Notes: generated by a model from the sequence alone, not told the origin. A DNA stretch of 41,194 bases from an uncultured bacterium (GCA_937911525.1 CALDQK010000390.1:1-41194); one strand, 5' to 3'; shown: positions 8,791 through 41,194, numbered from the stretch's first letter. Translations and numbers: made by a program.

Positions 8791-8793
8791 AGA

Positions 8794-10404: not shown

Positions 10405-10415
10405 TTCGCGTTACA

Positions 10416-11793: not shown

Positions 11794-11810
11794 GCTGCCT
11801 CCTGGGCTAG

Positions 11811-13249: not shown

Positions 13250-13280
13250 TCAGGTTTGGCGGATCCGTGGAGAGAGCCCA

Positions 13281-14714: not shown

Positions 14715-14909
14715 CCCGAGCGCGACCAGCCCCGCGTTAGGCGTGTACGTGAGCCGGGAGTGGCTCGGAGCCGATACCCGGGTCGTGGTCGAGGAGTCCG
14801 TTGGCAGTCAGCAGACGCTGCGGCAACTCCAGGCAAGCTATCGGCGGGTGACGCCATGAGCGAGGCGCTTCGCTACGCTAGACGCCGTCCCCGAGAGGCG
14901 GTCCTCAGC

Positions 14910-18681: not shown

Positions 18682-18684
18682 GCT

Positions 18685-24240: not shown

Positions 24241-27200
24241 GCTGCTTACGCCCTCCTGAGGCGGGCCTGGGGAAAGGACGGGCTCAAGGACCTCGACGCC
24301 TTGGGCGAGACCCTGACGGCGCGGGGCCGCGGGCGCCTCTTGGAGCTGGCCTACGAGCGCTACCGCGCCAAGGACGCGAGCGCTCACGCCAAGGCCTGCA
24401 AGACCGAGGGGATCGAGGCCGAGGGCCTGAGCCAGGATCCGGAGGCGCTGGGCGGCGAGCTGTGGACCGAGCGCTACGAGGTCTTGGCGCGGGGGGCAGG
24501 AGGCCTCCAGATCAAGAGCCTGATGAACGTGAAGGCTCGCGGGAAGGGCGGGAGCGGGGACCTGCGGCTGGCGATCGGGCGAGTCAACTTCGAGGTGCCC
24601 TTCGCCTTCGCTCGAGACGAGTCGGGCTGGCGGGTCGACTTCCCCCAGCCTCTCTACCCTGCCCTGCGAGCGATCGAGGGATTGGATCAGGCTCTAGCGC
24701 TGCTCAAGGAGGGTGACGCGGCCAAGGCCTTCGAGCTCTTGCGAGACGCGCCTGCCAGCAACGCCAAGGCCCGCCGAGCCCGCCTGGACGCGCTCCAAGC
24801 CCTCGCCCAGGCCGCGGTCGACAAGGCCGCCAAGTCGTCTCTCGAGGACCCTCTAGCTGCCGCCAAGGAGCTGGAGGCCTTCCAAGCCAAGTATGGCGAC
24901 GCGATCGCGGGGACGGGGCTCGACGAGTCGATCCGCAAGGTCCTGGTCTCGCTCAAGGGTCCTGAGGCGACGACCGAGGAGCCGCCAGAGCGTGTCGCCG
25001 CGGCCGAGAAGAAGGCGGCCGCTGGGCGCGAGCGAGTCAAGGCTCTCCAGGAGCGGATTCGCTCGGAGAAGGGCGCGCTGACCAAGGCCCTGAGCGCCGA
25101 GCTCGAGCGCGCGCGCTCCGAGTCACGCAAGGCCCCCTTGGACATCAAGCTGACGCAGGGCTTCTCTCTGGCGGGCGCGGTGTTGGAGGATCGAAACGAG
25201 CAGGGGTTCAAGGTCAAGGCTGCGGAGGGTGCAGCGGCGCGGTCTTGGAGCAGCGTCCCCGAGGCGGTGGCCCTCAAGCTGCGCCAGCTGGGTGTCCGCG
25301 AGGACGACGCTCAGGACCAGCTCCGCTTCGGCTACTGGGCGCTCAAGCAGCGAATGTTCAAGGAGGCGGATCGAGCCTTCGAGCGGGCGATCAAGCTGGA
25401 CGGCGCGCTCTCGAGCAAGGTCCCGAACGTGTCGGAGCTCGAAGAGGCCTCGCGCGTCTTCCAGGGGAAATATAGTCAAAAGGGGACGAGCGTCACGATC
25501 GAGTATCCCTTCCGCAAGCAGGACGAAGGGAAGGACTGGGCCTTCACGCCCTTTCGCGGGACCTCCGCCAAGGTCGTGGGCGGCGCGCTCGAGGCGACGG
25601 GCCGCGGGATCTTCCTCGTCGGGACCCAAGAGATCGGGTTCGACGGGCGCTGCGATCTCCAAGCCACCATCGAGAAGGTCACGGGCGACCACGGCGGCTG
25701 CTTCGGGATCGGGTTCGACTGCGACGGGAACGACGCAGTCTGGTATCTGGTCACGGTCTACCCCAAGTATCGCGCGCTGCGACTCCTCCGCTATCGGAAC
25801 GGGAACCTAGAGACGCTCAAGGAGAAGCGGAAGGCTGTTCGCCCGACCGGGAGCACGGACATCCGGGTCGTGATTCGCGGGAACTCGCTCAAGGTCAGCT
25901 CACGGGGCCAAACGCGGATCGCGGTCAACATTCCCACCCCGACTTGGAACGGGACCCGGGTCTTCGTCGGCGGCGCGGGTCCCATGAAGTCGGCAGCGAT
26001 TCGCCTGCGCAAGGTCAAGCTCCAAGGGCACGTTCGCTTCGCCTGGCTGCGGAAGTCCTTCGCGCGCCTGGACGCGCTCTTGTTCAAGGCGCTCAGCCGG
26101 GCCGGCGAGCTCCCGGTGTTCGGGGCCAGCGCGGCGGACCGTCCCATCGACACTTCGCTCTCCGCCGAGGACGAGTTCGGGCTCTCCAAGGTCTCGCCCC
26201 AAGCCCTCCAGGCCTACCGGAAGGCGGTCTCTCAGATCGGCAGCGAGGACTACCGGGTCCTCTACACGGTGGCTGACAACATAGGCAACGCGATTCGCCT
26301 CAGCCCTGACTTCGCCGCTGCTTACTACGTCCGCGCGCGACTTTTTCACAAGATCGGCAGCGCCTTCCTGGCCGAGCGCGACCTGGAGATCGCGTGCCGC
26401 CTGGCCCCGCGCTTCCACGAGGCCCAGGCGCTTCGGGCCCGGGTCCTGCTCGACATTGGCCGTCCCAAGGAGGCCCTGGTTCAAGCGGAGGCCGCGATCA
26501 AGAGCGCTCCGGGGGCTGCCGAGGGTTACATCGCGCGCGGTCTGGTCCGCTTCTCTCAAGACGAGTTGGAGGTCGCCCTCGAGGACCTCGAGTTGGCTCG
26601 GGCCCTGGCTCCTTGGGAGGAGGAGTTGGTGGGGCTGACTCGCAACGTCCAGAACGTGATCAACGGCCCTCCTTGGGCGCGGCGCTTCGAGGCCAAGACC
26701 GAGAACTACTTCGTCCAGACGAACGTCTCAGCGACCGCTGCCCAGGAGTATGCGGAGCTCTTGGAGGCGGGCCGGGCGCACTACGCCAAGACCTTCCCGC
26801 TTCCGGCGGACGGTCGTCGCTCCAAGGTCCTGATCTTCGACACTCAGGAGGGTTACCACGGCTATTCGGAGCTCAGCATCAACGATCGCGTGGAGTCCAC
26901 CCTCGGGTGCTATCTGCCTCGCTACCGCCAGCTGCTCCTCTTCGAGGAGAAGGGGAGCAAGACGAGGGACAAGACGATCCAGGTCTTGCTCCACGAGGGC
27001 TTTCACCAGTTCATGCACCAGCTCGTGCCCGACAACGCGATTCCTTTCTGGTTGAACGAGGGCCTCGCCGAGTTCATGAGCGCCGTAGAGGTCAAGGGAG
27101 GACGTGTTGGTCGCACAGGCCTCGTCCTAGAGGGACGGCTTGACAACCTTCGCTACTTCGTCAAGGCCAACGGCAACCGCCCGATGTCCTTCCCCAAGAT

Positions 27201-28013: not shown

Positions 28014-29075
28014 CTAAGCAGCCTCCCGGTGGTAGTGGCGCAGGAGCCCGCCGAGGCGGGATCGACAGAGAAGTCTGCCCTCCTGCTGGCCGACGGTCGG
28101 CCCAGGGTCGATCAGGGCGCTATCGAGGCCCTGGTGGTTCCTCTCTCGGTGGTAGTGCTCGACGTATTGAGCAACCGCGTGGCGGAGGTGCCCTTCGCCC
28201 AGGATCACCATGCGACCGAGGCACTCGTGCTTGATCGAGCGCACGAAGCGCTCGGCGTAGGCGTTGAGGTTCGGGCTTCGGCGAGGCAAGGTCACGACCT
28301 GGACTCCGCTGTGCCTAAGAAGTTCCTTGAAGGCTGCGGTGAAGAGCGGATCCCGGTCGAGGATCAGGTGGGTCTTGCCCTGGAGGAAGCCGTCGAAGTC
28401 GTTGAGCAGGTTGCGAGCGACCTGAAGGACCCACTGGCCGTCGGGGTCGGGCTGGATCCCTGCTATATGAACTCTCCGCGTTCTGAGCTCCATGACAAAG
28501 AACACGGAGTAGCGGACGATTCCCCGCAGGGTCAAGACCTCGACCTGGAAGAAGTCACCAGCGGCCAAGCCTTCCCAGTGAGCAGCCAGGAATTCTCGCC
28601 ATGAGGTGGAGCGGTTTCGCTCCGGGGCTGGGACGACGCCCTTGTCGTCCAGCACTCGCTTCACGGTGCTGCGGCTCGTGGAGTATCCGAGGTTGTGGAG
28701 GACGTCGCGGAGGCGGGTGTAGCCGAAGCCAGGGTTCTCGTGAGCGAGGCGGAGGAGGAGGGGCGCCAGCTGCTGGCGCCTCCGGGGGCGACCCAGGGGC
28801 TTGGAAGAGTGTTTCTCCGCAGCGAGGTTGCGATACCAGCGCAGGATCGTGTCCGGGGTCACCAACGAGGCGTAGCGAGCCAGGAGCGCCCTCCCAAGCG
28901 CCTTGCCAGCCTGAGCGAGCCGGTGACGCTGACGAGGCGTGTAGCGCAGCCTGCGGCCTCCGAGCTGCTCTCGGAGGGTCTCGTTCTCGGCCTGGAGGTA
29001 GGCGATCACCGTCTGCTGCTCCCGAGAGACCCAACCGACGGCCAAGAGGAGGAAGAATCGGACGACGTGAGGCAT
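28014..29075 (-). CDS. Integrase core (rve, DDE) transposase, IS3/IS481-related
   Basis: N-terminal HTH region ([11 protein letters not shown]...[18 protein letters not shown]) and catalytic D (GDFFQVE), D (LDRDPLF), E ([12 protein letters not shown]); ends [14 protein letters not shown]. Confidence 0.92.
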
Positions 29076-29296: not shown

Positions 29297-29422
29297 GGCG
29301 AGCTGTCGGCTGCGCCGACAGCTACGCAGGGGTCGCGCGCGTGGATCCGCAGGATCCGCGCAAGCGGCGTTTTGGTTTCGACAGTTTGGCGAGCTGTCGG
29401 CTGCGCCGACAGCTACGCAGGG
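29297..29422 (-). repeat. Two identical 35-bp GTAG-type REP-like palindromes
   Basis: GGCGAGCTGTCGGCTGCGCCGACAGCTACGCAGGG at 29297-29331 and 29388-29422 with a 56-nt spacer. On the minus strand each reads GTAG + CTGTCGGC-GCA-GCCGACAG hairpin. Confidence 0.75.
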
Positions 29423-29775
29423 CCTTCCCGCCCGAGGCCCGGTTTTCTTGGCGATCTCGGCGCTTTGGCGCCACAAGTCTAGACTCGACGGCGAATCGGG
29501 CCTCAAAGCCATACTGCCTGGGGCCCTGAGCATACCGCCCCCGTCCCGGTGGTAAGGACTTACGGCAGGGACCGTACCGCCTTGGCGCCACGCCATACTG
29601 GGGTCGAATTGGGCGTCCTGGGTACCCAGAACTGGGCGCTCAGAACGGAATCCGAGAAGGGTTCCCTCGAATCGCTTCACCCTCTTCGTGTAGTCGCCGA
29701 GGGCGCGGCTGTCAATGTTCGCTCGCTTGGGTGAGCGCGATGGCCCGCTCGCGCTGCGGGTGCCATGATCCCTCC

Positions 29776-31653
29776 ATGAGCTTCCAGCGGATCCGTTCAA
29801 TAGAGATCGACGAGGGGTTCCTTGGCGGCTTCCAGCAGGAGCTGTCGGGCCACCTGAACTGCGTGATCGGCTCGCGCGGCTCGGGCAAGACCACCCTGCT
29901 CGAGTTCCTCCGCTACGCGCTGCAGGTGCCGGTCGAGGACTCGCGCAGCCTCGAGGGCCTGGTGAAGAAGAACCTCAAAGCGGGCAGGATCCGCGTCGAG
30001 GTCGAGACCCCCCTGGGGGTCTTTGTCGTTGAGCGCCAGGCCAAGTCCGCCCCCAAGGTCTTCGACGCCCAAGGCGCCCTGATCCACTCGCCCCCCGAGG
30101 GGCTGCTCAAGACCGGCGCATACGTCTACAGCCAGTCCGAGATCGAGGCCATGGCGAGCAAGCCCATGGATCGCCTGGCCCTGATCGACCGCTTCGCCCA
30201 CGACGACCTCGAGACCGTCAAGGCGACCTTGGAGCGCCTCGACAGCCAGCTCCAAGTCTCAGCAGCGCAGCTCCAGAGCCTGCATGGAGAGGTGGGGGAC
30301 GTGGAGGCGCTCCAGCACGACCTGGAGTCCGCCCGGATCAAGCGAAAGTCCTTCGAAGGAGGCCAGGTCGACACCAATGCGCAGCTTCAAGCCGCCACCG
30401 CTGCCGCTTCCGCCCGAGCTGAGGAGGAGCGCGTCGTCAAGAGCCTGGCGAAGGGGGCCAAGGCCACGGAGCTAGCCCTAGACGAGTCGCGAAGCCGAGC
30501 CCTTGAGGGTCTTCAGCCCCGCCCTGTGGGCGCGGCGTCTCCGAATCAGGACGTCTTGAAGCGGATCCAGGCTGCGCAAGAGCGTCTTCGACAAGCAATC
30601 GAGCGCCATATGGACGCCGCCCAGACAGAGGTGCGGGAGTTCCTCGAGGAGTGCCGCTCGGTTCGGCATGCGCTCTACGAGCGGCATCATGAGCAAGGCG
30701 CGGCCTTTTCGGAGTTGCTGAGGCAGCAGGAGGTCGCCAAGGCAGCCGCAGCGGCGATTCTGGAGGCCGACGCTGCCGTCGCGTCGCTTGAGGAGAAGGT
30801 TCGGGATCAGGAGGCACGCCTCGCTCAGCTCTCGCGACAGCGCCACGCGCGCCAAAGCCAGATCGCCCGACTCTCAGAGGCACGGGATCGCCGTCGCGCA
30901 ACACGCCGCAGGGTCGTTGAGTTCCTCAACGAGAACCTCGTGGGCGCTGGAATTCGTATCGAATTCCAAGGTCAGGGCGACACTCAAGCCTTTGAGCAGG
31001 CGCTCTCCAACTTCTATCGAGGGACAGGGGAGACGGGCCAGAAGCGCGTGATTGCGGGCGTCGTCGAGCACCTAAGCCCTAGCGAGTTCGCGCGCCTCGT
31101 CGCGGAGAATGCAGCGGAAGAGCTCGCGACACTGACCCACGTGGAGCGGGCGCATGCCGAGTGGCTGATTCGTCACCTTCGTGGCAAGCCGGAGCACTAC
31201 CAGATCGAGGTGCTCGACCTCCCTGACGTCCCCTCGATCCTGTTCAAGGACGGAGAGGAGTGGAAGTCTTCCCACGAACTCAGCACCGGGCAGAAGTTCT
31301 CGGCGATCCTCCCGATTCTCCTCCTGCAGAGTGACAAGCCTCTGATCTGTGACGAGCCTGAGAGCCACCTGGATCAAGACACCCTCATGGAGAAGATCGT
31401 TGACCCAATCAAGAAGCTCGCAGGCAAACGACAACTGATCTTCGCGACGCACAACGCGAACATTGTCGTCTTGGGAGACGCGGGGCAGACCCACGTCGTC
31501 GTCCTGGAGTCCACAGGGACCGCGGCCCGCGTGGTTCGCGCGGGGACCGTTGACGACGCCAAGGTCGAGATCGGAGCCCTACTGGAGGGCGGACCCGAGG
31601 CCTTCCGCGAGCGCGCACGCCGCTACGGAGGGAAGTATGAGTCCCGATCTTGA
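29776..31653 (+). CDS. SMC/Rad50-like ABC-family ATPase with long coiled coil (TrlF/Ppl-ATPase-like, no PHP domain)
   Basis: Walker A GSRGSGKT, Q-loop YSQSEIE, coiled coil, signature LSTGQK, Walker B LICDEPESHLD, H-loop ATHNANIVV, C-terminal LEGGPEAFRER. Confidence 0.9.
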   Translation: MSFQRIRSIEIDEGFLGGFQQELSGHLNCVIGSRGSGKTTLLEFLRYALQVPVEDSRSLEGLVKKNLKAGRIRVEVETPLGVFVVERQAKSAPKVFDAQGALIHSPPEGLLKTGAYVYSQSEIEAMASKPMDRLALIDRFAHDDLETVKATLERLDSQLQVSAAQLQSLHGEVGDVEALQHDLESARIKRKSFEGGQVDTNAQLQAATAAASARAEEERVVKSLAKGAKATELALDESRSRALEGLQPRPVGAASPNQDVLKRIQAAQERLRQAIERHMDAAQTEVREFLEECRSVRHALYERHHEQGAAFSELLRQQEVAKAAAAAILEADAAVASLEEKVRDQEARLAQLSRQRHARQSQIARLSEARDRRRATRRRVVEFLNENLVGAGIRIEFQGQGDTQAFEQALSNFYRGTGETGQKRVIAGVVEHLSPSEFARLVAENAAEELATLTHVERAHAEWLIRHLRGKPEHYQIEVLDLPDVPSILFKDGEEWKSSHELSTGQKFSAILPILLLQSDKPLICDEPESHLDQDTLMEKIVDPIKKLAGKRQLIFATHNANIVVLGDAGQTHVVVLESTGTAARVVRAGTVDDAKVEIGALLEGGPEAFRERARRYGGKYESRS

Positions 31654-32716
31654 GGCGCTCGCGAAGCGACTGGATCGGGGCAGTTGGACCGAGCGCGAGG
31701 AAGCGCTGCGCAAGGTTCGGCGCCTCGCCGAGAGCCTGCCGCCAACAGCCTTGGAGGAGCTGCTCGAACCGCGCTTGAGCGTCCTGGCTGCCGACTCCAA
31801 GTGGGAGGTCCGCCGAGGTTTGGCGCGCGTGCTGGGGCACTACCGCAGCGCGAGTGCGCGAAACGTGATCGAGCGGCTGTGGGGCGACGACAACGCTCAG
31901 GTCTCCAAGACGGCCCAAGAAACGCGGAAGCGCTGGACGGCCGACGATCGCGAACTCGAGCGAAGGAGGGCGCTGGAAGAGACGCTCCCTGAGCGTCTTC
32001 GCGAGCTGCGCGACCGAGACCCCGAAACGGCCCAGGCCGCAGAAGAGCTGGCGTTCCGGCAGTCAGCGCTTTCGATCGGCGCTCTGGCTCACGACCTCGC
32101 GACCACCACCTTCAACCTCGTCAACCTCAGACGTCGCGCCGAAAGCCTGCTCGCCGACACCGACCCCGGCGAGCGAGAGCCGTTCCTCTCTGGCCTGGAT
32201 CGGCAGATCGACCTCCTGAACGCGCTCGTGCAGGACTCGCGCTCCTACGCGGTGAGCGCCAACACCCCCTCGACTCAGACACCGCTCCGCCAGGCCGTAG
32301 AGAACGCGGTCGCGCGAAACCAGGCTCGACTGGAGGGAGTCACCGTGCGACTCAAGATCGGCGACGAGCTCGCCGCCTTCGTGCCTCGCGAGCCCTTCGA
32401 GCGAGCACTCGGGAATTTGCTCCGAAACGCGGGTGAGGCCTTCGAAGAGGGGCCGGGGAGCGTGATCGTTCGGGCATTCGAGGAGGACGAGTGGGTTGTG
32501 CTCGAAGTAGAGGACGACGGCATGGGTATGGAAGACCCGATTCGTTGCCTCCAGCCCTACGCCTCGACCAAGAAACGAGGAGGCGAGATTCACAGCGGCC
32601 TCGGGTTGCCAATCGTGCGCAGGATTGTGGAGACCGCTGGGGGAAGCCTGAGCATTCACTCAACGCTGGGAGCGGGCACGCGGGTTAGGCTGCAGCTCCC
32701 AAGGTGGAGCGCGTGA
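31637..32716 (+). CDS. Soluble sensor histidine kinase with N-terminal HEAT repeats
   Basis: ATG 31637 overlaps the ATPase end. HEAT-like DSKWEVRRGLARVLG and DDNAQVSKTA; H-box LAHDL, N-box GNLLRNA, G1 EDDGMGM, F-box PYASTK, G2 GLGLPIV. No TM segment. Confidence 0.9.
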   Translation: MSPDLEALAKRLDRGSWTEREEALRKVRRLAESLPPTALEELLEPRLSVLAADSKWEVRRGLARVLGHYRSASARNVIERLWGDDNAQVSKTAQETRKRWTADDRELERRRALEETLPERLRELRDRDPETAQAAEELAFRQSALSIGALAHDLATTTFNLVNLRRRAESLLADTDPGEREPFLSGLDRQIDLLNALVQDSRSYAVSANTPSTQTPLRQAVENAVARNQARLEGVTVRLKIGDELAAFVPREPFERALGNLLRNAGEAFEEGPGSVIVRAFEEDEWVVLEVEDDGMGMEDPIRCLQPYASTKKRGGEIHSGLGLPIVRRIVETAGGSLSIHSTLGAGTRVRLQLPRWSA

Positions 32717-33564
32717 TCCTCGTTGTCGAAGACCAAGAATCCATGCGTGGGATCCTCGCCGACCTCTTCCGTGGCGAGGGCTACGAGGTCGAGGTCGCCT
32801 CGGCGCGCAAGAGTGCAGAGAGCCTCCTGGCGCAGGGGGGCTTTCGACTCGCGATTCTGGACTACGAGATCCCCCTCGAGGATCGCCCGACCTCCTTCGC
32901 CTCCACTGCACAGGGCAAGGCCGTCATGGAGGCGGCAGAACGAGCGAAGGTTCCCTTCGTCGTTCTCACCGGCGTCGCCTACGACTGGCAGCAGGCCTTC
33001 GCCGCCCGCGCGGCTCTCGACTACTTGGACAAGTCCGACGCTCGCACCTTCGATCGGCTCCTCGAGATCGCGGCTCAGGTCTTCGCCAACCGCAGCGGAG
33101 GGCTCCCGCTTGAAGTGGAGCGCTACCAGGACGGCAACGTCATGCGGCTCCACAAGGATCGGCTCGTGCGGGTCTGGGTGACAGGCCAGCAGAGGCGCTA
33201 TGAGGTGGTCGTCACAGAGGGAATCGAGCGCTCGCTCTACCACTTCGCGGAGGCGCAGGGCGAGGACATGCCCTGCACGTTCCCACACGTCCCCAATCCA
33301 GATTCGCGCCGCAGCGCAGCGCGTGACCTCCGGGCATGGCTTCGAGAACACTTCGAGCCTTCGACTCCGACCGATCCCAAGGCGCCAGTGATCTCGAACA
33401 ACAGGGGTGGCTACTACTGCGAGGTCACCGTTCTCAACGAGCCCGACCCCTTCGAGTACGAAGAGCGACGGCGAGGCATGCGCGAGGCGGGAACCGAGAT
33501 CAGTCCCGAGGCCAAAAGCGACGACGGGGAGTCAGACGGCTACCAGCGTCGCCGCCCACGTTAG
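32704..33564 (+). CDS. Response regulator: receiver domain plus uncharacterised C-terminal (possibly winged-helix) output domain
   Basis: ILVVEDQ, phosphoacceptor AILD, VVLTG, DYLDK. C-terminal AARDLRAWLR...ISNNRGGYY is reminiscent of an OmpR-type wing. Start GTG 32704 or 32713. Confidence 0.85.
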   Translation: MERVILVVEDQESMRGILADLFRGEGYEVEVASARKSAESLLAQGGFRLAILDYEIPLEDRPTSFASTAQGKAVMEAAERAKVPFVVLTGVAYDWQQAFAARAALDYLDKSDARTFDRLLEIAAQVFANRSGGLPLEVERYQDGNVMRLHKDRLVRVWVTGQQRRYEVVVTEGIERSLYHFAEAQGEDMPCTFPHVPNPDSRRSAARDLRAWLREHFEPSTPTDPKAPVISNNRGGYYCEVTVLNEPDPFEYEERRRGMREAGTEISPEAKSDDGESDGYQRRRPR

Positions 33565-33900
33565 CGTCGCCACCTCCGCCCGACTCCTCCCCCGCTCGGT
33601 CGGGGCGTGTGGCACACGCTCGCCCACGAATCTTGACGTAACTCCCCTGTTTTCGTTCCGCGGCCGAATCCGTGGGCGAGAAGGGCACTTCGTGTGCCCA
33701 CGCTCGCACACGCTTTGACGCCGGTCAGACGGCGGCTAAGGACTTAGAGAGACTCCGAGGAAATCTCGGAGCGAGATCCAGCCGAAACGGGCCGAATCCG
33801 TGGGCGGGCCCCGCCCACGCCCCCCACGCGCCCACACTTTCTCCGACTGGCAAAGACTTACAGCGACACGACCAGGGAGCGTGTGCCGATCGTGGGCCAC
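33553..33900. promoter_or_regulatory. Intergenic control region with multiple CGCCCACG/CGTGGGCG motifs and IHF-like sites
   Basis: Exact motif at 33553, 33621 and 33812 (forward) and 33671 and 33799 (reverse); near matches at 33695, 33829 and 33891. 17-bp direct repeat GGCCGAATCCGTGGGCG at 33662 and 33790. TAAGGACTTA near 33737 and CAAAGACTTA at 33851 resemble the CAANNNNTTR IHF core. Confidence 0.55.
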
Positions 33901-33980
33901 ACGATCTTGCAAACACTGTGTTCCCAGAGCGTTAGGGAGTTTTCGAGCAAAACCACGGCAGTCCTTAGAGGAGGTGCGAA

Positions 33981-34157
33981 ATGCACATTACCCAAGGGCA
34001 CGAAACGCTCGAAGAACTGCTGACCCGAATCCACGACCCCGCTGCGGACACCTGCAGCACGCCGCCGCCGTGGGTGACCCAAGACCCGGAGTGGTCTGTC
34101 GCCCTCAGGCGCCTCTCTCCCTTGCTCGAGACGCAGAGCCAGGGGGTGGGGCAATGA
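33981..34157 (+). CDS. Small hypothetical protein (58 aa; not in the ORF track)
   Basis: Strong RBS GAGGAGGT before ATG 33981; MHITQGHETLEELLTRIHDP...; stop overlaps the next start (ATGA). Confidence 0.65.
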   Translation: MHITQGHETLEELLTRIHDPAADTCSTPPPWVTQDPEWSVALRRLSPLLETQSQGVGQ

Positions 34158-34381
34158 CCCGCGCTGGCAAGCGCCTCAGCCAGATTGAGGCACTCAGAGA
34201 GGAGATCTGTCGGCTTCGCCTGCAGCTCGAGTCCGACACCTATCAGTTCGAGGCCCTCGCGGCCTGGGCCTTGGAGGCGGGCGCCGACCCCGACGACGTC
34301 GTCGGGGACCTGCACGAAGCCGCCGAGCGTGCGGTGTGGTCCATGTCGCTCGAGTTCGGGTTCGAGCGAGGTGCGGCATGA
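34154..34381 (+). CDS. Small hypothetical protein (75 aa)
   Basis: MTRAGKRLSQIEALREEICRLRLQLE..., with ATGA overlaps at both ends. Confidence 0.7.
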   Translation: MTRAGKRLSQIEALREEICRLRLQLESDTYQFEALAAWALEAGADPDDVVGDLHEAAERAVWSMSLEFGFERGAA

Positions 34382-34968
34382 GGCGCACCGTGTTCTCGAT
34401 CCCTCCCGAGCAGCGGGAGCGGATTCGTCAGGGGATCTTGGAGCTGGAGCGCGAGGGCGAACGCGCCTCGGTCCGCTTGATTCGTGAACGCGTTGGTGGC
34501 TCCACCGACGTGATCGCGTTCTTGGTGCGGGCCGTTGCGGCAGGCTTCATTTCGCCCGAAGAGCCGTGGGACGGGCGGGTGGCTCCCCTCGACCTGAGGG
34601 AGGCGATCCGGGCAGCTACCACCCACGACGACCACGTTCGGATCCACCAAGAGGTGGCCGCCCGAGTGGCGTGCGGGGACATGAAGCCCCAGATCGCAAA
34701 GTCGATCCAGGACAGCATGACGGCGGCGCGGCTCAGCGCGAAGGCGGCCCTGGAAGCGAGCCCGCCGGTTCACGGCGAGGACTCGGTTCAACTCGTCGAC
34801 CGGGCGACCTTCTTGATCTCTCGCGTCGTGAACCGGATCGCCTCGCCCTCGATCCTCGAAGAGGTCCAGGCCTTCGTCTACGACGCCGGACGCCGCGACC
34901 TCGACGAGTTCCCGAACCCCACGATCGACGAGGTCAGCCACCTCCGAGGGGAGGGGCTGCCCTCGTGA
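34378..34968 (+). CDS. Putative DNA-binding protein (KfrA-N-like HTH); positional candidate for terminase small subunit
   Basis: N-terminal ILELEREGERASVRLIRERVGGSTDVIAFLVR resembles the KfrA_N HTH. Coupled by ATGA/GTGA overlaps upstream of HNH-terL. Confidence 0.6.
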   Translation: MRRTVFSIPPEQRERIRQGILELEREGERASVRLIRERVGGSTDVIAFLVRAVAAGFISPEEPWDGRVAPLDLREAIRAATTHDDHVRIHQEVAARVACGDMKPQIAKSIQDSMTAARLSAKAALEASPPVHGEDSVQLVDRATFLISRVVNRIASPSILEEVQAFVYDAGRRDLDEFPNPTIDEVSHLRGEGLPS

Positions 34969-35390
34969 ACTCCCCCACCACGTGGGGGCGGGGAGTGCGA
35001 GCGCGGCTCGCACTCCCCGAGGTTCCCCCAATGATCCGCTCGCTCCTCACGGAGCGTGACGGGACCGAGAGCTGCGCAGCCTGCTTGCGGATAGGCCTCA
35101 CGCCGCCTGCCAGCGAGCCGCTCGAGGTCGACCACAAGCAGCCGATCTCGCTGGGTGGCGACAACCACTGGACCAACCTCCAGATCCTCTGCCGCTACCA
35201 CAACCGCAGCCGAGGCAACCGGCCCGTCGACCCGCGTCGGCTTCCGACTTGGTTGGCGCAGTTGGCCCGAGAGCGACGACTCAAGGCACACGTCGCCTGG
35301 TGTGAAGCCTGTGGTCACGTCTGGAGCCCAGTCAGCAAGTGGCTCGCCTCTCAGGTTGAGGTGCTGCTAGCGAACGAGTCGGCGTCATGA
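34965..35390 (+). CDS. HNH endonuclease (phage packaging-associated type)
   Basis: CAAC...LEVDHKQPISLGGDNHWTNLQILCRYHNRSRG. GTG 34965 overlaps the previous stop; its own stop overlaps the terL ATG. Confidence 0.9.
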   Translation: MNSPTTWGRGVRARLALPEVPPMIRSLLTERDGTESCAACLRIGLTPPASEPLEVDHKQPISLGGDNHWTNLQILCRYHNRSRGNRPVDPRRLPTWLAQLARERRLKAHVAWCEACGHVWSPVSKWLASQVEVLLANESAS

Positions 35391-36787
35391 GCGGCTCGCT
35401 CGACGATCTCGAAGACCTCGGCTACCTCCAGGGTGAGCCGCGGCACCGCCAAGGAACCTGCGCGCAGCGCTCGCTGGGGTTTGAGCCCTGGTGGGGCCAG
35501 CGCCTCGTGCGACGCTCCGACGCTCCGTGCCGAGTCCTCGTCGCGGCGCGACAGGTGGGCAAGAGCTACCTCGCTGCACACCTGGTGATCGAGGTGGCGC
35601 TGGGACAGCCGGGGTCCTACTCGGTCCTCCTGACGCCGACCTACCTCCACGCTCGCCCCGCGATCGACACCCTGCGGCGGATCTGCCTCCACCTCCCCGA
35701 CTGCGAGTGGCGAGAGCAGCAGAAGCGACTGGTGTTCGGGAACGGCTCGATCCTCCAGGTCTTCTCGGCAGACCGGCCCCATGCGGTTCGCGGTCCCGCC
35801 CTCTCCGGCATTCTCTGGGTCGACGAGGCGGCCTTCCTGCGGCCAGCCGCCTGGGAAGCAGCCCTGGGTGCGCTGAGCTCCTCGCAGAACCCGCGCAAGC
35901 TCCTGACCACCTCACCGCTGGGCAAGAACTGGGTCTTCAAGGAGTTCGTCACCGGCAACGCAGGCAACGAGCCCTTCCGCTTTCGCTCGGCGGACAGTCC
36001 CTACGTCAACCAGGAGGAGGTCGCTCGCAACCGCGCCAAAATGACGCCAGAGCGAGCCGCGCAGGAGTTCGACGCCGAGTTCGTCGATTCGCTCTTGCTC
36101 GTGTTCCCTGACCTCTCGCGGCTCTTCGTGAAGACCGTGGGGACGCACCCAGAGACCCCCAAGCGAGCGCTTGGGGTCGACCTCGGCAAGGACCAGGACT
36201 GGACCGTCGTCGTCTTGATCAATGAGTTCGGCGAGGCCGAGGTCCTGGGGCGCTGGCGCCACGTCAATTGGCCCGAGACCGAATCGCGGATCCTCGACCT
36301 GATCGAGACTCACCAGGTCTCGATCACCTGCGTCGATAAGGCCTACGTCGGCGGCTACCTGATCGACCGCCTCAAGGCCTTGGGCAAGAGCGTGCTCGAG
36401 CTGGCCACCAGCTCGCGCCAGCTCAAGGCACGTGTCATTGAGACCCTTCGTGCCGACGTCCAGCACCAACGTGTCCACGTCCTCGAGAACGAGCACTCGG
36501 ATCAGCTCCACTATGAGCTGAGCCGCTTCCAGGCCACGCAGCACGCTGTCCACGGACGACTAGAGACGCGCTACGAGTCTCCTGAGGTCCGCGGCGAGCA
36601 CGACGACTGCGTGATCGCGCTGGCGCTGGCGAACTGGGTCCGCCACCACGGCTTGGTCGGGCCCAAGCCCGTCCGGGCCGATATCCGTCGCTACGTCGCG
36701 TCCGCCAAGCGGATCTTCGGCAACGACCACTGGCCGAAGACGCCAGGTCCCGACGGCGGCTACTACGGGCCGGGGTTCCTCCTATGA
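35387..36787 (+). CDS. terL: Phage terminase large subunit (Terminase_6-like)
   Basis: Walker A AARQVGKS, Walker B LWVDEAAF, coupling motif TTSP, nuclease LGVDLG...D and HDDCVIALALA. Confidence 0.92.
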   Translation: MSGSLDDLEDLGYLQGEPRHRQGTCAQRSLGFEPWWGQRLVRRSDAPCRVLVAARQVGKSYLAAHLVIEVALGQPGSYSVLLTPTYLHARPAIDTLRRICLHLPDCEWREQQKRLVFGNGSILQVFSADRPHAVRGPALSGILWVDEAAFLRPAAWEAALGALSSSQNPRKLLTTSPLGKNWVFKEFVTGNAGNEPFRFRSADSPYVNQEEVARNRAKMTPERAAQEFDAEFVDSLLLVFPDLSRLFVKTVGTHPETPKRALGVDLGKDQDWTVVVLINEFGEAEVLGRWRHVNWPETESRILDLIETHQVSITCVDKAYVGGYLIDRLKALGKSVLELATSSRQLKARVIETLRADVQHQRVHVLENEHSDQLHYELSRFQATQHAVHGRLETRYESPEVRGEHDDCVIALALANWVRHHGLVGPKPVRADIRRYVASAKRIFGNDHWPKTPGPDGGYYGPGFLL

Positions 36788-38133
36788 GCGACCCCGCGAG
36801 AGACGCGCGGCCCTTCGGCCGCGCCCCAAGCAGCGGCGGCGACTCGCTCAACGTCCGAGCCTCGGCGGCCTTCGAGCACTTCGTCGGGCAGCAGCTCCGC
36901 CACCCCAATCCCGCCCGCGTTCCCCTGTCCTACCTCCGCGCCATGGACGACCACGCCATGGTCTACCTCGCGGAGCGCACGGTGACCGGCGTCGTTCGGC
37001 GCCCCGACCTCTACTACGTCGCCCACACCGATCCGCGGATCGTGAAGGAGACCGAGGAGTGGCTCTGGCCACTGCTCCCGAGCCTCCTGGGCTCGATCGC
37101 GCGGGCCTACGCCTTCGGCGCGATCCCCGTGGTCTGCAATTGGACCTGCGAGGACCTCGCCCACGACGAGCTGCGCTGGCCGGATCACGTTCACTACAGC
37201 TCGGCCCACGAACTGTGGCCCGAGGACGTTGACGTCGAGACCCGAAACGACGCGTTGATCGCGCTGCGCCACGAGGGCAAGCGCTACCTCGCCGAGCGGG
37301 CCCACGTCTTCGTCTGGGACTTCGCCTTTGGCTCCTGGCGAGGCCGTGCCGCCCGGCGTCGGGCCTGGTGCGACTACTGCCGGAGCCTTTCCACGGAGCT
37401 GCTCCAGCTCCGCTACCTCGAGCGGAGCGTGGACTCGCCTCGCGTCGGCTACGCGCCTGCTGGCTTCGTTGCGACGGGCGGGACCGAGGTCGACGCGATC
37501 GACCACATGAACCAGCTCTTGGGCACCCTCCAAGGCTCGGGAGCAGTCACCTTCCCGTCTGAGCGCGACGAGAAGGGGAACCTCGTCTACGACGTTCGCC
37601 TCCTCGACGGGCCCGACCGCCAGACCGTCTGGGAGCGCTCGCTGAGCCGCTACGACGCGGGGATCCTCCGCGCCTACCTCGTCCCACCACGACTTGCGGG
37701 CCTGGAGGAGATCGCCGCCACGGGGGCCCGAACCCTCGACGGCATGCTCAAGGAGTTCATACAGGACCTGGCGCAGTTCGCAGGCGATCAGCTCACCCAG
37801 CTCGTCGCCAAGGTCCACCGCCACAACCATCCCGAAACCCGCGTCCCGCCGCCCGAGGTCAAGGCCTACGAGGTCCCCGCGTCGGTTCGCAAGCTCTACC
37901 TGGAAGTCCTGCGGCTCGTATCCGCAGCCAAGCGAGAGGAGTCCCCAGCCGACTGGGTCGACGTTCCCTCCCTCCTCGATCAACTCGGTGTCCCCCTCCG
38001 TCGAGAGCCGCTCCGCGGCTCCAGCTCCGCCCCGACAGGGCGACCTCCCGACCTGACAGGCGGGAGGCAAGCGCGCCGCGAAGCGGCGCGGAGTGAGGAC
38101 CCGAGCCCCGATCTAGAAGGAGGTGAGTCGTGA
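36784..38133 (+). CDS. Probable phage portal protein (Mu gp29/DUF935-like)
   Basis: 449 aa immediately after terL; AYAFGAIPV...W, YLERSVDSPRVGYAP and RYDAGILRAYL recall DUF935-type portals. Mostly a positional call. Confidence 0.75.
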   Translation: MSDPARDARPFGRAPSSGGDSLNVRASAAFEHFVGQQLRHPNPARVPLSYLRAMDDHAMVYLAERTVTGVVRRPDLYYVAHTDPRIVKETEEWLWPLLPSLLGSIARAYAFGAIPVVCNWTCEDLAHDELRWPDHVHYSSAHELWPEDVDVETRNDALIALRHEGKRYLAERAHVFVWDFAFGSWRGRAARRRAWCDYCRSLSTELLQLRYLERSVDSPRVGYAPAGFVATGGTEVDAIDHMNQLLGTLQGSGAVTFPSERDEKGNLVYDVRLLDGPDRQTVWERSLSRYDAGILRAYLVPPRLAGLEEIAATGARTLDGMLKEFIQDLAQFAGDQLTQLVAKVHRHNHPETRVPPPEVKAYEVPASVRKLYLEVLRLVSAAKREESPADWVDVPSLLDQLGVPLRREPLRGSSSAPTGRPPDLTGGRQARREAARSEDPSPDLEGGES

Positions 38134-39323
38134 GTCGACTTATCAGTGTGTTGGTGTTGGTGGTGTGTTTTGGCGGGTTCGCCTGGGGGGCGGACTTGCC
38201 GCCGGTGGACCGAAAGCCCCCTGGGGCGGAAGGGAGTGGGGTCACTGAGGCGGTGACCAAGGAAGAGGAGGGCTTGGACGACTTCTCGTTCGACGCCTTC
38301 CGGGATCTGGTGCTCGGGCGGACGACGGTCCGCGGAGCGCTCAGCGCGGGGTATTCCTACAACCTCGCGGATCCGGAGCAGCACCGAGGCGGGAACGCGC
38401 TTCGGCTGAGCGACCCGGATCACAACAGCTTCGCCCTGACCCACGCGGTCTTGGGGTTGGAGCGTCGGGTCGATCCGAACAGCGACGTGGACGTGGGCTA
38501 TGGCCTCGATCTCACGGTCGGTCGGGTCGTGGACGAGGCCTACGACGACGGCCTCCTCCAGTCGCGAGGGATCGCGGTCGGGCAAGCCTACGTGGACCTC
38601 AAGACGCCGCTCTTCGGCGGAATGAAGTTCCGAGCAGGTAAGGAATACGGATGGTTCGGGCTCGACTCGGTCGACCTGAGCCGCAACTTCCACCAGTCGC
38701 TCAGCTACGCAGCGCTCTCGGCGCCGCGAACCCTCGTGGGGGTCTCGGCCGAGATCGAGCTCCTGGACGGGGTGACCTACGCCCAATACCTGGTCAACGG
38801 GTCTGACCTCGCGATCGACGACAACGACGCCAAGTCGCTGGCGGGCCGCCTGCGCCTGGCCTCGGATCGAGGGTCGCTCACGCTGAGCTACATGCTTGGC
38901 GCCGATCGTTTCGACAGCGAAGGCGAGCTGAGTTGGATCGCGGAAGCCGTCGCGACCTACCAGCTGACGGACACCCTGTCTGTCGGCGGCTTGGTCCGCG
39001 TCGGCCAGGAGGAGGTCAACGGGTCGGTCCGTGAGTTCGGCCTCCTCGAGGCCCAGGCTCGGGTCTCGCTCTTCGACGGCCTGCTCCACCTCGGGGCACG
39101 GGCCAGCGTCCTCCACGACGAGGACGGAATGATCACGGGACGCGACCAGTCGCTCTTCGAGATCACGGCGACGGCTGAGCTGCGCTTGGCTGAGCAGTTT
39201 GGCGTCGGCGCGGAGTTCCGTCACGACGAGTCGTCCGAGGACGACGCTTTCGGCGGGAGTCGAGGTGCTGCCACGCGCAGCAGCCAAGACACCCTCTCGT
39301 TCTTCGTTCGCGTCCGCTTCTAA
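38130..39323 (+). CDS. Outer-membrane beta-barrel protein (putative porin, BBP2/DUF1597-like)
   Basis: Signal peptide (MSRLISVLVLVVCFGGFAWG), GYSYN...NALRLSD..HNSF, QAYV...RAGK, AEFRHD, alternating beta-strand pattern and terminal FFVRVRF with C-terminal Phe (BAM signal). Confidence 0.85.
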   Translation: MSRLISVLVLVVCFGGFAWGADLPPVDRKPPGAEGSGVTEAVTKEEEGLDDFSFDAFRDLVLGRTTVRGALSAGYSYNLADPEQHRGGNALRLSDPDHNSFALTHAVLGLERRVDPNSDVDVGYGLDLTVGRVVDEAYDDGLLQSRGIAVGQAYVDLKTPLFGGMKFRAGKEYGWFGLDSVDLSRNFHQSLSYAALSAPRTLVGVSAEIELLDGVTYAQYLVNGSDLAIDDNDAKSLAGRLRLASDRGSLTLSYMLGADRFDSEGELSWIAEAVATYQLTDTLSVGGLVRVGQEEVNGSVREFGLLEAQARVSLFDGLLHLGARASVLHDEDGMITGRDQSLFEITATAELRLAEQFGVGAEFRHDESSEDDAFGGSRGAATRSSQDTLSFFVRVRF

Positions 39324-39338
39324 CCCTCTCTTCCGCAA

Positions 39339-39364
39339 GGGGCGGGGCCGTCAGGCCCCGCCCC
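39339..39364. other. Intercistronic 11-bp GC hairpin
   Basis: GGGGCGGGGCC-GTCA-GGCCCCGCCCC between the porin stop and the GGAGG RBS of the protease gene; no U-tract. Confidence 0.6.
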
Positions 39365-39377
39365 GCCTGGAGGCCCT

Positions 39378-40574
39378 ATGCCTACTCAGCTCTCCGCCCT
39401 TCACCTCCCGCTGGTCTCGAGCCGGCTGATCGTTGATCGCACCACCCCGGGTCGGATCCTGGGCGTCTCGATCCTGACCACGGGCCCCGCCAAGGGGCAT
39501 GGGTTCGACGTCGACGAAAACCTCGTCGAGCGCGTCGTCCACCTCGGCCAAGGAATCAGGGGCCGCTGGACCCACGGGGCTCCAGGAGCCAGCGCGCTCG
39601 GTCGCCACCTCGGCGAGTGGTCGAACCTCCGCACCCAACGCTTCTCGGTCTGCAGGTCCTGCCAGCTTGAAGCAGAGACCCCGCACTGCGGCCAGTGCGG
39701 CGCCAAGACGGAGGCCGCCCTGAGGGCGCTGGGCGACTTCGCGTTCAGCGCCAGCGCCTGGAAGCTCAAGCCCGACGGGCTCGACGTGCCTGCCCCCGAA
39801 TACCTCATGACTCGGGCCGAGGAGGACCCGCGCAGCCTGGGGATCTCGATCGTGGCGCCTCTGCGCCTGGAGGCTGAGCCGGGCAACAGCGACACCCCTC
39901 GGACGCTGGCCCGAATCGTGGGCGACGAGCTGCTGCGCGCTGACTGGGTCGCGGACCCCGCCGCCAATCCCACCGGGCTCTCCCAGGACGCAGGCGAGGA
40001 GCCCTTCCTTCCCCACCTGGACCGGCTCGTGGCCACCCGAGGCGAGGAGGGAGCCCGGCTCCACATGCTCGGGGTCCTGGCGCGCTACTTCGGCGACGAG
40101 GCCGAGGAACCCGCTGCCGCGCCGCCTCCCGTGCTCAGCCCGTCGGCGGAGGACGTTGCAGCTCTCCGGAACGAGCTGGCCAGCCTTCGCGCCGAGGTCG
40201 AAGGAGTCCGGCGCGAGACCCGGAGCCTGTCCGTTGGGCTGGCTGCCGAGCGGATCCGCTTCCTCAAGCGCCAGGCTGCGGCCCTCGACGCCCCCGTCAC
40301 GGCAGACGAGATCGCCTCGCTGGAAGCGCTCGCAGACCAGGGCAACTACGCCGCCGTTCGGACACGCGCCGAAGCCTGCCTGGCCAGGTGCGAGGCCAAG
40401 CAGCAGGCCCCCCACGAGGCGGTCGCGGTCGTGCCGCTCCGCGTCCAGCCAACCGCCGAAGACTCACTCGCCGTGCAGGCCCGCGTCTTCGACGCCTCGC
40501 GGCGCGTGCTGCCGCCCCTCCCTTCCCTCTCCCCCACCCCGACTGCCCAAGGAGGCCGCCATGAGAGTTCCTGA
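39378..40574 (+). CDS. Probable prohead maturation protease/scaffold with inserted Cys4 zinc ribbon
   Basis: GVSILTTGPAKGHG...RGRWTHG...AEEDPRSLGISIV...ADWVADPAANPTGL resembles phage prohead proteases (His, Ser, DxVxxPA). C-terminal coiled-coil scaffold-like part; CRSC-x8-CGQC insert. Confidence 0.75.
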   Translation: MPTQLSALHLPLVSSRLIVDRTTPGRILGVSILTTGPAKGHGFDVDENLVERVVHLGQGIRGRWTHGAPGASALGRHLGEWSNLRTQRFSVCRSCQLEAETPHCGQCGAKTEAALRALGDFAFSASAWKLKPDGLDVPAPEYLMTRAEEDPRSLGISIVAPLRLEAEPGNSDTPRTLARIVGDELLRADWVADPAANPTGLSQDAGEEPFLPHLDRLVATRGEEGARLHMLGVLARYFGDEAEEPAAAPPPVLSPSAEDVAALRNELASLRAEVEGVRRETRSLSVGLAAERIRFLKRQAAALDAPVTADEIASLEALADQGNYAAVRTRAEACLARCEAKQQAPHEAVAVVPLRVQPTAEDSLAVQARVFDASRRVLPPLPSLSPTPTAQGGRHESS

Positions 40575-41194
40575 GATCACGACGCGGGAGCACCGTCCCC
40601 GTCGCTACCTGGTCAATGACCAGGTCTACGTCCGGCACAAGGACGTGGTCCTCGAGGCGGACACCGAGTCGCCGATGGTTCCCGTGGACAAGATCCGCGC
40701 GGGCACGGTTCTGGTCGCAGCTCAGCGCTCCTCGACCTTCGTGGTCGCGACGGACGACCGCGCCGAACGGTGTCGCCCTGCGCGGCTGGTGTCGCTGGCT
40801 CCCGCCGACGCCCAGTGGGCCAACTCGGTCCTGACGGCCTCGCTGGGCCGGGACACGGGCTTCGCGGTCGTGCTCGACGCCAACGCGGTCGACACCGCTG
40901 CGGTCGTGGATCAGCTCAACCAGAACCTGGCCTTCTCGGTCCACTTCCTCGCGGACGAGGACCCCAACGGCCTGGTGCGAATCCGAACCCGCTCCAGCGG
41001 CGCGGACGCCTTCCTGCACGTCGCCAGCAGCTACGTCCAGGCCTTCGGCCCCAAGGGCACGGCTGCGATCGGTCGCGACCCCGTGGTCTGTGTCGCCGAC
41101 GACCTCGGCGAGCTGAAAGACGTCGAAGGACGAGCGGCCCAGTCCCTCGTTCCCACGATCGCGGCGGGTCACTTCCGCGAGTCCGAACTGATCG
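40561..41194 (+). CDS. Putative head decoration-type structural protein (partial; not in the ORF track)
   Basis: GGAGG RBS, ATG 40561, open to the window end: MRVPEITTREHRPRRYLVND...KIRAGTVLV...VCVADD...AAGHFRESELI. Position after the protease and the IxAGTVL...G.F motifs fit lambda gpD-like decoration proteins. Confidence 0.6.
   Translation, partial: MRVPEITTREHRPRRYLVNDQVYVRHKDVVLEADTESPMVPVDKIRAGTVLVAAQRSSTFVVATDDRAERCRPARLVSLAPADAQWANSVLTASLGRDTGFAVVLDANAVDTAAVVDQLNQNLAFSVHFLADEDPNGLVRIRTRSSGADAFLHVASSYVQAFGPKGTAAIGRDPVVCVADDLGELKDVEGRAAQSLVPTIAAGHFRESELI

Follow-up and report, generated by a model that had tools for sequence, protein, structure and literature searches.

An ATPase–kinase–regulator module of mobile elements beside the packaging operon of a probable Planctomycetota prophage

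Introduction

Signal-transduction genes that lie directly upstream of phage packaging genes raise the question of whether they control these genes or are merely carried beside them. Such an arrangement is found on contig CALDQK010000390.1 of an uncultured bacterium (GCA_937911525.1), hereafter C390, whose entire 41,194 nucleotides form the stretch of DNA analysed here and called the window. Three genes on the plus strand, together termed the triad, encode a Rad50-type ABC ATPase, a cytoplasmic histidine kinase (HK) and a response regulator (RR), and are followed by a gap of about 417 bp (33565-33980) and a co-oriented operon for DNA packaging and head assembly (Table 1). The original prediction, made from the sequence of the window, took the triad to be the dedicated controller of a minimal set of head genes, in a signal-inducible satellite, a system resembling gene transfer agents (GTAs) or a domesticated capsid system. 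The comparisons described here lead to a different picture. The triad is a common, previously uncharacterised ATPase–kinase–regulator module of mobile elements, and the C390 element, judged from its paralogues, appears to be neither a GTA nor a satellite but a temperate prophage, a member of a phage family with multiple copies in one lineage of Planctomycetota. No description of the triad was found in the literature searched.

The genome is fragmented (1342 contigs, 10.18 Mb, 71.4% GC), and genes were called with a home-made codon-position-GC scorer, which misplaces starts and overlooks genes where GC is low (L050 and L054, for example). Below, contigs of this genome carry C numbers, other genomes of the same bacterial family G numbers and individual loci L numbers.

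A three-gene module with a predicted DNA-binding output

The three genes overlap, by 17 nt between ATPase and HK and by 13 nt between HK and RR, in agreement with the arrangement first described. The ATPase matches the Pfam families AAA_21 (E 7.3e-13) and AAA_23 (E 1.4e-6) and is of the predicted Ppl/TrlF type: its best curated match is to the TrlF family of NCBIfam (NF045780; E 3.1e-74, 251.2 bits with a cut-off of 350, profile positions 289-944 of 944), followed by Ppl_antiphage (NF042955; E 3.7e-29, 101.3 bits with a cut-off of 1000, aligned from profile position 756 of 882) and the PADLOC Ppl model (E 1.5e-18, C-terminal quarter only). It stays under the curated cut-off of both NCBIfam models. 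Because the match to the TrlF profile starts only at position 289, the N-terminal PHP part is missing; Pfam gives no PHP match and the protein begins at the ATPase head. Across 66 homologues there is no variation in the residues of the Walker A, Q-loop, signature, Walker B and H-loop motifs (G32, R34, G35, G37, K38, Q120, S503, G505, Q506, D526, E529 and H559).

The HK carries a HEAT_2 (E 1.9e-8) and a HATPase_c (E 3.9e-18) domain, and its hydropathy peaks at 1.07 over 19 residues, so that no membrane helix is indicated and the predicted kinase without a transmembrane sensor is borne out. In 79 homologues, conservation reaches at least 80% for H152 and for the N, G1 and G2 boxes; H152, N264, G295, G321 and G323 are invariant in an alignment of 66 sequences.

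The RR consists, as anticipated, of a receiver (Response_reg in Pfam) and a further domain, here of about 160 residues. The receiver, in which D10, D53 and K110 are nearly invariant among 68 sequences, gives PDB profile matches to CheY and OmpR-family receivers with E-values of 1e-20 or better. The output domain of 10 family members has no Pfam match even at E 5, and is missed by the Trans_reg_C model. Aligned with hhalign to a template of eight Trans_reg_C domains from OmpR-type regulators of the same genome, it gave E-values that fell from 0.025 to 4.8e-4 with a bigger alignment and to 1.3e-4 with the output domain alone, at probabilities of 2-54%; the register was constant across the whole template, and the best run (E 1.3e-4, probability 54%) covered 83 columns. 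Structural neighbours in the Atlas rows include Trans_reg_C clusters at TM scores of 0.47-0.57, which are leads only. In most members of the RR family, but not in the window RR, another winged helix is added, which is ArsR-like by PDB profile (E 1.7e-4). The output of the family is thus predicted to bind DNA through one or two winged helices and is probably not an enzyme. HK and RR match no PADLOC model; whether that library covers Detocs was not checked.

Distribution across phyla and mobile elements

Relatives of the triad are numerous. They were found in at least 433 of 595 pattern-matched stretches from species-representative genomes, at least 536 of 598 from metagenomes and 49 of 84 from IMG/VR; the locus counts below refer to the best 80 of the genome relatives, the best 80 of the metagenome relatives and 45 IMG/VR loci. 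The full triad is present at 75 of the 80 genome loci and at 33 of the 45 IMG/VR loci. Hosts of the best 80 belong to Planctomycetota, Verrucomicrobiota, Myxococcota, Alphaproteobacteria, Acidobacteriota, Gemmatimonadales and others; the module also occurs in the cultured strains Anatilimnocola sp. NA78 and Chthoniobacter flavus Ellin428. Among the metagenome matches listed, none is closer than 36% identity to the window triad.

No further neighbour family accompanies the triad at more than 12 of the 80 genome loci. Linkage of the triad to head genes in other genomes, the absence of which was to count against the original prediction, largely failed to emerge: BLAST with the proteins of this phage family detected head genes at one of the 80 genome loci (L128) and at none of the 80 metagenome loci, and terminase, portal and capsid families of Pfam were absent from 133 flanking or recurrent neighbour proteins, a set that excludes three very long flank proteins. 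The flanks are instead rich in mobile-element families (serine recombinase with DUF2924, tyrosine integrases, insertion sequence (IS) transposases, AAA_24, DUF669, helicases and primases), such recurrent families being present at 29 of the 45 IMG/VR loci, and in defence genes, namely BrxL, type I (HsdM) and MmeI-like methylases, Mrr, GmrSD, TIR, HipA, HigB, AAA_13, AAA_15/21, WYL and the Cas protein Cas_GSU0053.

Two architectures stand out. One has a serine recombinase and DUF2924 divergent from ATPase, HK, RR, HTH_17, AAA_24, helicase and primase; the other has a replication module (AAA_24, DUF669, helicase, AAA_25) divergent from the triad. At ten genome loci, the triad lies co-directionally and directly 5′ of an excisionase-like (HTH_17) gene and replication genes of an integrative element, with phased repeats in between. 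Taken together, these contexts describe a self-contained mobile module, located at the control junctions of unrelated integrative elements and in defence islands.

A multi-copy prophage family

The phage genes of C390 belong to a family with many copies. In tblastn searches of the genome itself, TerL, the large terminase subunit, was found on nine contigs, the portal candidate on eight, the outer-membrane barrel protein BBP2 on eight and the capsid gene on nine, at 39-77% identity. The closest paralogue of the window element is C938, which probably continues in C88 (TerL 76%, portal 71-77% identity). The full layout is seen in C96 and C1282, where the small terminase subunit (TerS), LpxR, a ParB nuclease, Mom and HNH lie ahead of TerL, the portal gene and a slot for cargo; after these come BBP2, a pair of assembly genes, the Phage_cap_E capsid gene and some ten more genes that are conserved. 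Helicases, an exonuclease, RuvC, a primase and a serine integrase lie beside the triad of C828, and a candidate recombinase gene of C477 clusters with the primase-integrase open reading frame (ORF) of C828. The TerL family occurs in seven of ten other genomes of the bacterial family and in none of ten more distant ones searched.

The C390 sequence ends at 41194, 5′ of the expected capsid gene. In C96, C1282, C927 and C477, a Phage_cap_E gene lies 3′ of the homologue of the last gene of the window (C96: Phage_cap_E E 6.6e-22, phrog_29 E 5.8e-29), and the apparently minimal head operon is therefore an artefact of the end of the contig inside the gene that precedes the capsid gene.

Four triads are present in this genome, on C390, C938, C149 and C828. 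On C938 the triad is divergent from the TerS operon, whereas on C390 the two are co-oriented. On C149 and C828 it lies 3′ of LpxR and BBP2, and on C828 also 5′ of replication genes and the integrase. Among relatives, a capsid gene precedes the triad in G001 and BBP2 precedes it in G002 and G009; in G008 (G008:C83, the same locus as L128), the packaging operon is divergent from BBP2, the triad, RuvC and primase; and in G007 an 8-kb contig has no phage genes around the triad. Genes of the phage family thus adjoin eight of the nine triads of the bacterial family (4/4 in this genome, 4/5 in the relatives searched). An ATPase followed by HK and RR is found at seven of nine loci of relatives.

Further observations concern the content of these elements. 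Between the portal and BBP2 genes lies a cargo hotspot, empty in the window, which holds PycTM and a cyclase, a Pycsar-like pair, in C96 (10086-11431), RND efflux genes in C1232 (463-9294) and six unknown genes in C1282 (18337-22447). Genes for outer-membrane proteins are represented by BBP2 (C96, 12010-13221) and an LpxR-type lipid A deacylase (C96, 2805-3647; PF09982 E 5.7e-62); in some elements the LpxR-BBP2 pair instead stands directly 5′ of the triad (C149, C828, G002 and G009 loci). The C828 locus (L008) has a frame of 1781 aa at 8556-13901 with primase matches at residues ~90-430 and a serine integrase at ~1140-1686 (phrog_95 E 2.4e-73), which is either a fusion or two genes merged by the caller. 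In G001:C21 (L046), a second regulator-like gene lies 2 kb 3′ of the triad (6680-7516); it has the same output domain, and Gly/Ser replace its acidic-pocket and acceptor Asp residues, which gives it the look of a pseudo-receiver.

Operator-like arrays beside the regulator gene

The gap between RR and operon was originally described as rich in motifs, and this proved correct. The hexamers of its array (Table 1) include three same-strand CGTGKG pairs at a spacing of 10-11 bp. The longer motif CGTGKGC matches 33 times in the window, with a whole-window expectation of 19.6 +/- 4.1, and 11 of these matches fall within 33554-33897; the gap is the only place in the genome with a cluster of six or more. 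Its densest 250 bp contain 10 CGTGKG sites, the maximum among 197,566 genome windows (mean 0.30, 99.9th percentile 3), and the next best contig reaches 6. Scans of the gap for sigma-70 promoters and terminators returned no site.

A comparable array accompanies the closest triad, that of G001:C21, whose ATPase is 44% identical: a 241-bp gap directly 3′ of its RR gene holds nine CGTGKG sites in about 200 bp, and no window of the 20-kb stretch outside this array has more than three. The genes 3′ of it encode a 206-aa ORF and an exonuclease, with no TerS gene nearby. The association of CGTGKG arrays with the RR is found at these two loci, C390 and G001:C21. The two regulators are alike in the recognition-helix segment, while that of C938 differs, and C938 has a different array: between its divergent TerS operon and triad (L005, 3354-3585), GGGAAGG/CCTTCCC occurs 12 times in 232 bp, with ~10-bp spacing and long inverted repeats. 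At 19 loci of the alphaproteobacterial type, the gap between RR and HTH_17 measures 113-287 bp and contains direct repeats, 4-6 in number, that recur every 11 bp; their motif varies by group, as does the recognition-helix segment. Across loci, at least three phased copies of an exact hexamer were found in 17 of 75 gaps 3′ of RR, compared with 4 of 103 gaps 5′ of the ATPase and 28 of 541 other gaps.

These phages also have arrays of a second kind. C722 and G008, whose TerS proteins are 66% and ParB proteins 82% identical, have a GGTCAGG array in common, a motif that is absent near the RR149-type triads (C149, C828, G002, G009). Since GGTCAGG arrays track the ParB/TerS backbone and occur without a triad, this second kind belongs to the phage backbone. 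The window gap could hold both kinds.

Proposed mechanism and alternative explanations

We propose that the triad is an accessory sensor-regulator module that controls the operon next to it, in C390 the late operon, and we give this about an even chance. Control by the RR is plausible because the operator-like array sits beside the RR gene and recurs after its closest homologue; the homology of the output domain to DNA-binding domains and the uniqueness of the array in the genome speak for it as well. This part of the original prediction keeps moderate support, and the dedication of the triad to head genes does not. In the mechanism that we envisage, the Rad50/Ppl-like ATPase without a PHP domain would sense abnormal DNA such as free ends; it is by analogy with Ppl that it may respond to DNA or infection. 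The soluble HK would read the ATPase through its HEAT domain, autophosphorylate on H152 and pass the phosphate to D53 of the RR, the catalytic residues being conserved. The winged helix of the RR would bind the CGTGKG array beside its own gene, as the position of the array and its co-occurrence with this type of regulator suggest, and the RR would thereby control the adjacent operon, in the window the late operon of small ORFs, TerS, HNH, TerL, portal and head genes. More tentatively, and with doubts prevailing, the triad could be a widespread induction switch, in which the PHP-less ATPase detects DNA ends or damage and acts through the HEAT kinase and an RR bound to phased repeats, so that the next operon is turned on. 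Its targets would then be excision and replication genes in the alphaproteobacterial elements and the packaging/head late operon in the planctomycete prophage, amounting to a phosphorelay-controlled, repressor-independent exit from lysogeny built from a domesticated defence sensor.

A number of observations weigh against control of the operon by the triad. It is found in only three of 15 TerL stretches of at least 8 kb (C390, C938 and G008:C83; the count omits L196, of 3.9 kb) and was not found in the TerL stretches C96, C1282, C722, C1232, L189-L195 and L197. Because so few carry it, the late operon must normally be run without it, and the triad is optional cargo of the phage family, not its core regulator. 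The enrichment of arrays 3′ of RR comes mostly from related alphaproteobacterial elements and is weak in an independent metagenome sample (4/36 versus 12/196 gaps). C722, a contig of 12.6 kb without a triad, has its GGTCAGG array 5′ of a ParB-TerS operon, and the window array could likewise serve the phage in packaging or late control. The output domains of the window and G001 regulators are strongly diverged, so much so that the domain of the window RR, searched by itself against 400 further genomes from the phylum, gave no match. Many triads sit amid defence genes, which fits a role in defence.

Such a role is the content of a second explanation, which we consider the less likely of the two: the triad would be an anti-phage or anti-plasmid module, a Ppl relative without PHP and with a two-component output, expressed in lysogeny as prophage cargo, with incidental adjacency to the head operon and with the CGTGKG array as a cos/pac (TerS-binding) or late-promoter region of the phage. 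The matches of the ATPase to Ppl/TrlF models and the defence genes in the triad flanks agree with this, as do the Pycsar-like and RND efflux cargo of the hotspots, the optional presence of the triad and the packaging-operon arrays on contigs without one. Ppl is described as having a Rad50-like ATPase and as likely attacking DNA ends (PMC13648713), and the validated defence system Ambrosia is reported to contain a two-component pair (bioRxiv 10.1101/2025.09.30.679545). On the other side, no effector is recognisable: the PHP domain is missing, the RR ends in winged-helix DNA-binding domains, and neither HK nor RR resembles a PADLOC model. Moreover, the CGTGKG array recurs 3′ of the gene for the closest RR homologue, at a locus with no TerS gene in the vicinity, and the triad precedes excisionase-like and replication genes, with phased repeats between, at ten genome loci.

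The remaining alternatives concern the element itself. That it is a satellite, a GTA-like or a domesticated capsid system with the triad as dedicated controller of a minimal head set, as originally suggested, can draw on the adjacent and co-oriented triad and head operon, on the operator-like array between them and on the lack of a visible repressor gene in the window; family searches confirmed that no repressor, replication or recombination gene lies between triad and TerL, and the C390 copy can be read only to 41194. These readings are nonetheless unlikely because the paralogues are full prophages with variable cargo, containing capsid, connector, replication and integrase genes. The presence of several copies in one genome, and of the family in seven of ten other genomes of the bacterial family and none of ten outside it, is a pattern of temperate phages; a GTA would be inherited vertically. 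In contrast to typical satellites, the element has a probable TerS, HNH, TerL and a portal candidate, and outside this lineage triad and head genes are not linked at the loci searched. We therefore regard this explanation as very remote. Nearly as improbable is a host chromosomal two-component system beside which a prophage merely integrated. The transposase and non-phage genes left of the triad would suit it, as would the lack of any att site or integrase found in the window, yet the triads of this genome and most of those in its relatives adjoin genes of this one phage family, G008 and C828 have phage genes to either side of the triad, C390 and C938, the two closest elements, place and orient it differently, and the triad family is found on 45 viral contigs of IMG/VR.

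Packaging operon and flanks of the window

Table 1. Coordinates of the triad, the array and the packaging/head genes in the window
Feature	Position	Strand	Length	Basis
ABC/Rad50-type ATPase, TrlF/Ppl-like, without N-terminal PHP domain	29776-31653	+	625 aa	
Cytoplasmic HK with N-terminal HEAT-repeat domain	31637-32716	+	359 aa	
RR: receiver and divergent OmpR/PhoB-like winged-helix domain	32704-33564	+	286 aa	
Operator-like array, 14 CGTGKG hexamers on both strands	33555-33898			
Small ORF, first operon gene	33981-34157	+	58 aa	No family or paralogue found
Small ORF, overlaps both neighbours	34154-34381	+	75 aa	No family or paralogue found
Probable TerS	34378-34968	+	196 aa	Paralogue comparison
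HNH endonuclease	35031-35390	+	119 aa	PF01844 E 3e-7; phrog_589 E 3.1e-8
TerL	35387-36787	+	466 aa	phrog_2 E 6.1e-35; Terminase_6N E 3.8e-7
Portal protein candidate	36784-38133	+	449 aa	Atlas feature search, synteny
BBP2/OmpL-type outer-membrane beta-barrel with signal peptide	38130-39323	+	397 aa	PF07642 E 4.9e-29, profile 2-338/339
Head-assembly protein, no family match	39378-40574	+	398 aa	Protease/scaffold role from position only
Head gene, no family match, cut by contig end	40561-41194	+	about 231 aa in paralogues	Paralogues

Of the co-oriented packaging/head operon first described, TerL and the orientation hold, and the start differs, since two small ORFs, a TerS-like gene and HNH come first. 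A GGAGG motif precedes the ATG at 33981. Start and stop codons overlap through the two small ORFs and the TerS-like gene, a gap of 62 bp separates the latter from HNH, and overlaps resume through TerL, the portal candidate and the BBP2 gene. The TerS candidate has no direct match in Pfam, PHROGs or NCBIfam; it is 51% identical to its C938 paralogue and 30-35% identical, over residues about 70-190, to the proteins of C96, C722 and G008, among which the C96 homologue matches the terminase small subunit phrog_57 (E 4.8e-15). TerL is nearest, among isolated phages, to those of Thermus phages P23-45, P74-26 and G20c and Meiothermus phage MMP17 (25-28% identity). The portal candidate is blank in HMM searches (Pfam, PHROGs, NCBIfam) and in PDB sequence-profile searches. 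Its Atlas features, by comparison, fall in Portal_Mu (PF06074) clusters in 30 of 30 matches, with scores of 0.97-0.98, and in the paralogues its gene always lies 3′ of that of TerL, a synteny seen in eight copies.

The protease that had been assigned to the head set was not recovered. The gene after the portal candidate (38130-39323), examined as a protease, was rejected for this role, since its PF07642 BBP2 match spans the whole profile; its N-terminal hydropathy is 2.05, the same position is kept in C88, C96 and C1282, and the gene is a moron inside the head operon. The next gene product (39378-40574) matches no protease or other family in Pfam, PHROGs or NCBIfam and gives coiled-coil matches only, at residues about 260-390, in PDB profile searches; its homologues are kept ahead of the capsid gene in the paralogues. 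No head gene of the window matches a prohead protease.

To the left of the triad, the remainder of the window contains a transposase and non-phage genes. GC content is 62-70% across about 6.5-41 kb, mostly under the genome mean, and the lower-GC part comprises IS genes, Wadjet remnants and an efflux operon. The immediate left neighbour of the triad is an rve-type transposase gene (28014-29075, minus strand), and an IS66 TnpB gene (9332-9913, plus strand) lies farther left; the left border of the prophage may be rearranged. Between transposase and ATPase, a direct repeat of ~35 nt with a hairpin (29297-29331 and about 29388-29423) is found at this single place in the genome, and 91 bp between its copies are missing from contigs of two other runs, which indicates a length polymorphism. 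The Wadjet remnant (20426-24387, minus strand) encodes a JetD-like C-terminal domain together with a JetC-like protein, in which the MukB hinge falls at residues 160-318 and the N-terminal head is thus seemingly missing; JetA and JetB are absent, and a TPR/DUF1570 gene on the plus strand begins at 24301. The lower-GC segments 1841-6589, 10564-11931 and 13242-19875 encode a Ser/Thr kinase of 1582 aa with FG-GAP repeats, a Schlafen AlbA_2 protein and the efflux operon, made up of TetR, MacB-like ABC, FtsX, HlyD and OEP genes. Rfam and ARAGORN searches of the window returned no RNA family and no tRNA, and Tandem Repeats Finder returned just two 20-nt rows.

A binning or assembly chimera at the junction of triad and operon was ruled out by difference-free contigs from three other public runs. 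These independent contigs, from one study, are identical to the window over 31732-34291, 33015-34380 and 32610-33926 and span the RR, the gap and the start of the operon; an additional one joins the transposase region to the ATPase. Depth is even over host flank, triad and head genes, and is uninformative on its own.

Comparison with known systems

Like Ppl (Gao_ppl) and TrlF, the window ATPase is an ABC ATPase of the Rad50 type, interrupted by a long helical insertion; it has the C-terminal signature/Walker B/H-loop region in common with them, and its family is likewise found on prophages and in defence islands. Ppl reportedly senses 3′-OH overhangs, as a 2026 Mol Cell paper is said to describe. 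Unlike Ppl and TrlF, the ATPase has no PHP domain, which takes up about the first 288 profile positions, and it stays below both curated cut-offs; unlike the single-gene Ppl system, it is accompanied by a kinase with HEAT repeats and by a regulator predicted to bind DNA (75/80 best genome loci).

The two-component part resembles OmpR/PhoB systems in its H-box, N, G1 and G2 boxes, in the receiver Asp and Lys residues and in an output that aligns to the whole Trans_reg_C template. Helically phased direct repeats, the usual sites of OmpR/PhoB regulators, also lie beside the regulator gene. The triad differs from these systems in that the HK is soluble, with a HEAT input in place of the membrane sensor, the gene of an ABC ATPase is translationally coupled upstream, the output is missed by the Pfam Trans_reg_C model and the module is mobile and borne by mobile genetic elements.

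In Detocs, a cytoplasmic histidine kinase with a repeat-type sensor is combined with a cognate receiver and a separate buffer receiver, and the regulator bears an effector of the PNP type. The triad has in common with it the cytoplasmic kinase with a repeat-type sensor, the cognate receiver and the defence contexts, and differs by its DNA-binding output, the absence of a third receiver gene from the conserved unit and the added ABC ATPase. Ambrosia resembles the triad in its two-component pair, an ATPase of the histidine-kinase type and a REC-wHTH regulator, which are proposed to activate adjacent genes when infection occurs (bioRxiv 10.1101/2025.09.30.679545); it offers a precedent for control of defence genes by such a pair. 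Its effectors are a methylase and an HNH protein, it includes an XRE regulator, and it is described without an ABC ATPase, whereas the triad has no fixed effector genes.

The head genes follow the order of Lambda- and P23-45-type modules, with TerS, TerL, portal and assembly proteins and then, in the paralogues, a Phage_cap_E capsid. The likeness to P23-45 extends to TerL, nearest to the Thermus group, and to features of the portal candidate that match Portal_Mu/P23-45 portal clusters. In contrast to those modules, HNH lies between TerS and TerL, and a secreted BBP2 barrel and a cargo hotspot lie between portal and assembly genes. Unlike GTAs of the RcGTA type, the family, as seen in its paralogues, has replication, recombination and serine integrase genes, nine TerL contigs in one genome and a patchy distribution (7/10 genomes of the bacterial family).

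Significance for mobile elements and the prophage family

The analysis documents a multi-copy prophage family of Planctomycetota with genes for outer-membrane proteins (BBP2 and LpxR) and cargo hotspots in its structural operon. Cultured carriers make the triad open to bench testing. If it is true that the RR drives the neighbouring operon, mobile elements would have borrowed a defence-type DNA sensor of the Ppl/OLD/Gabija class to time their replication or packaging, in place of the repressor/SOS logic on which model phages rely.

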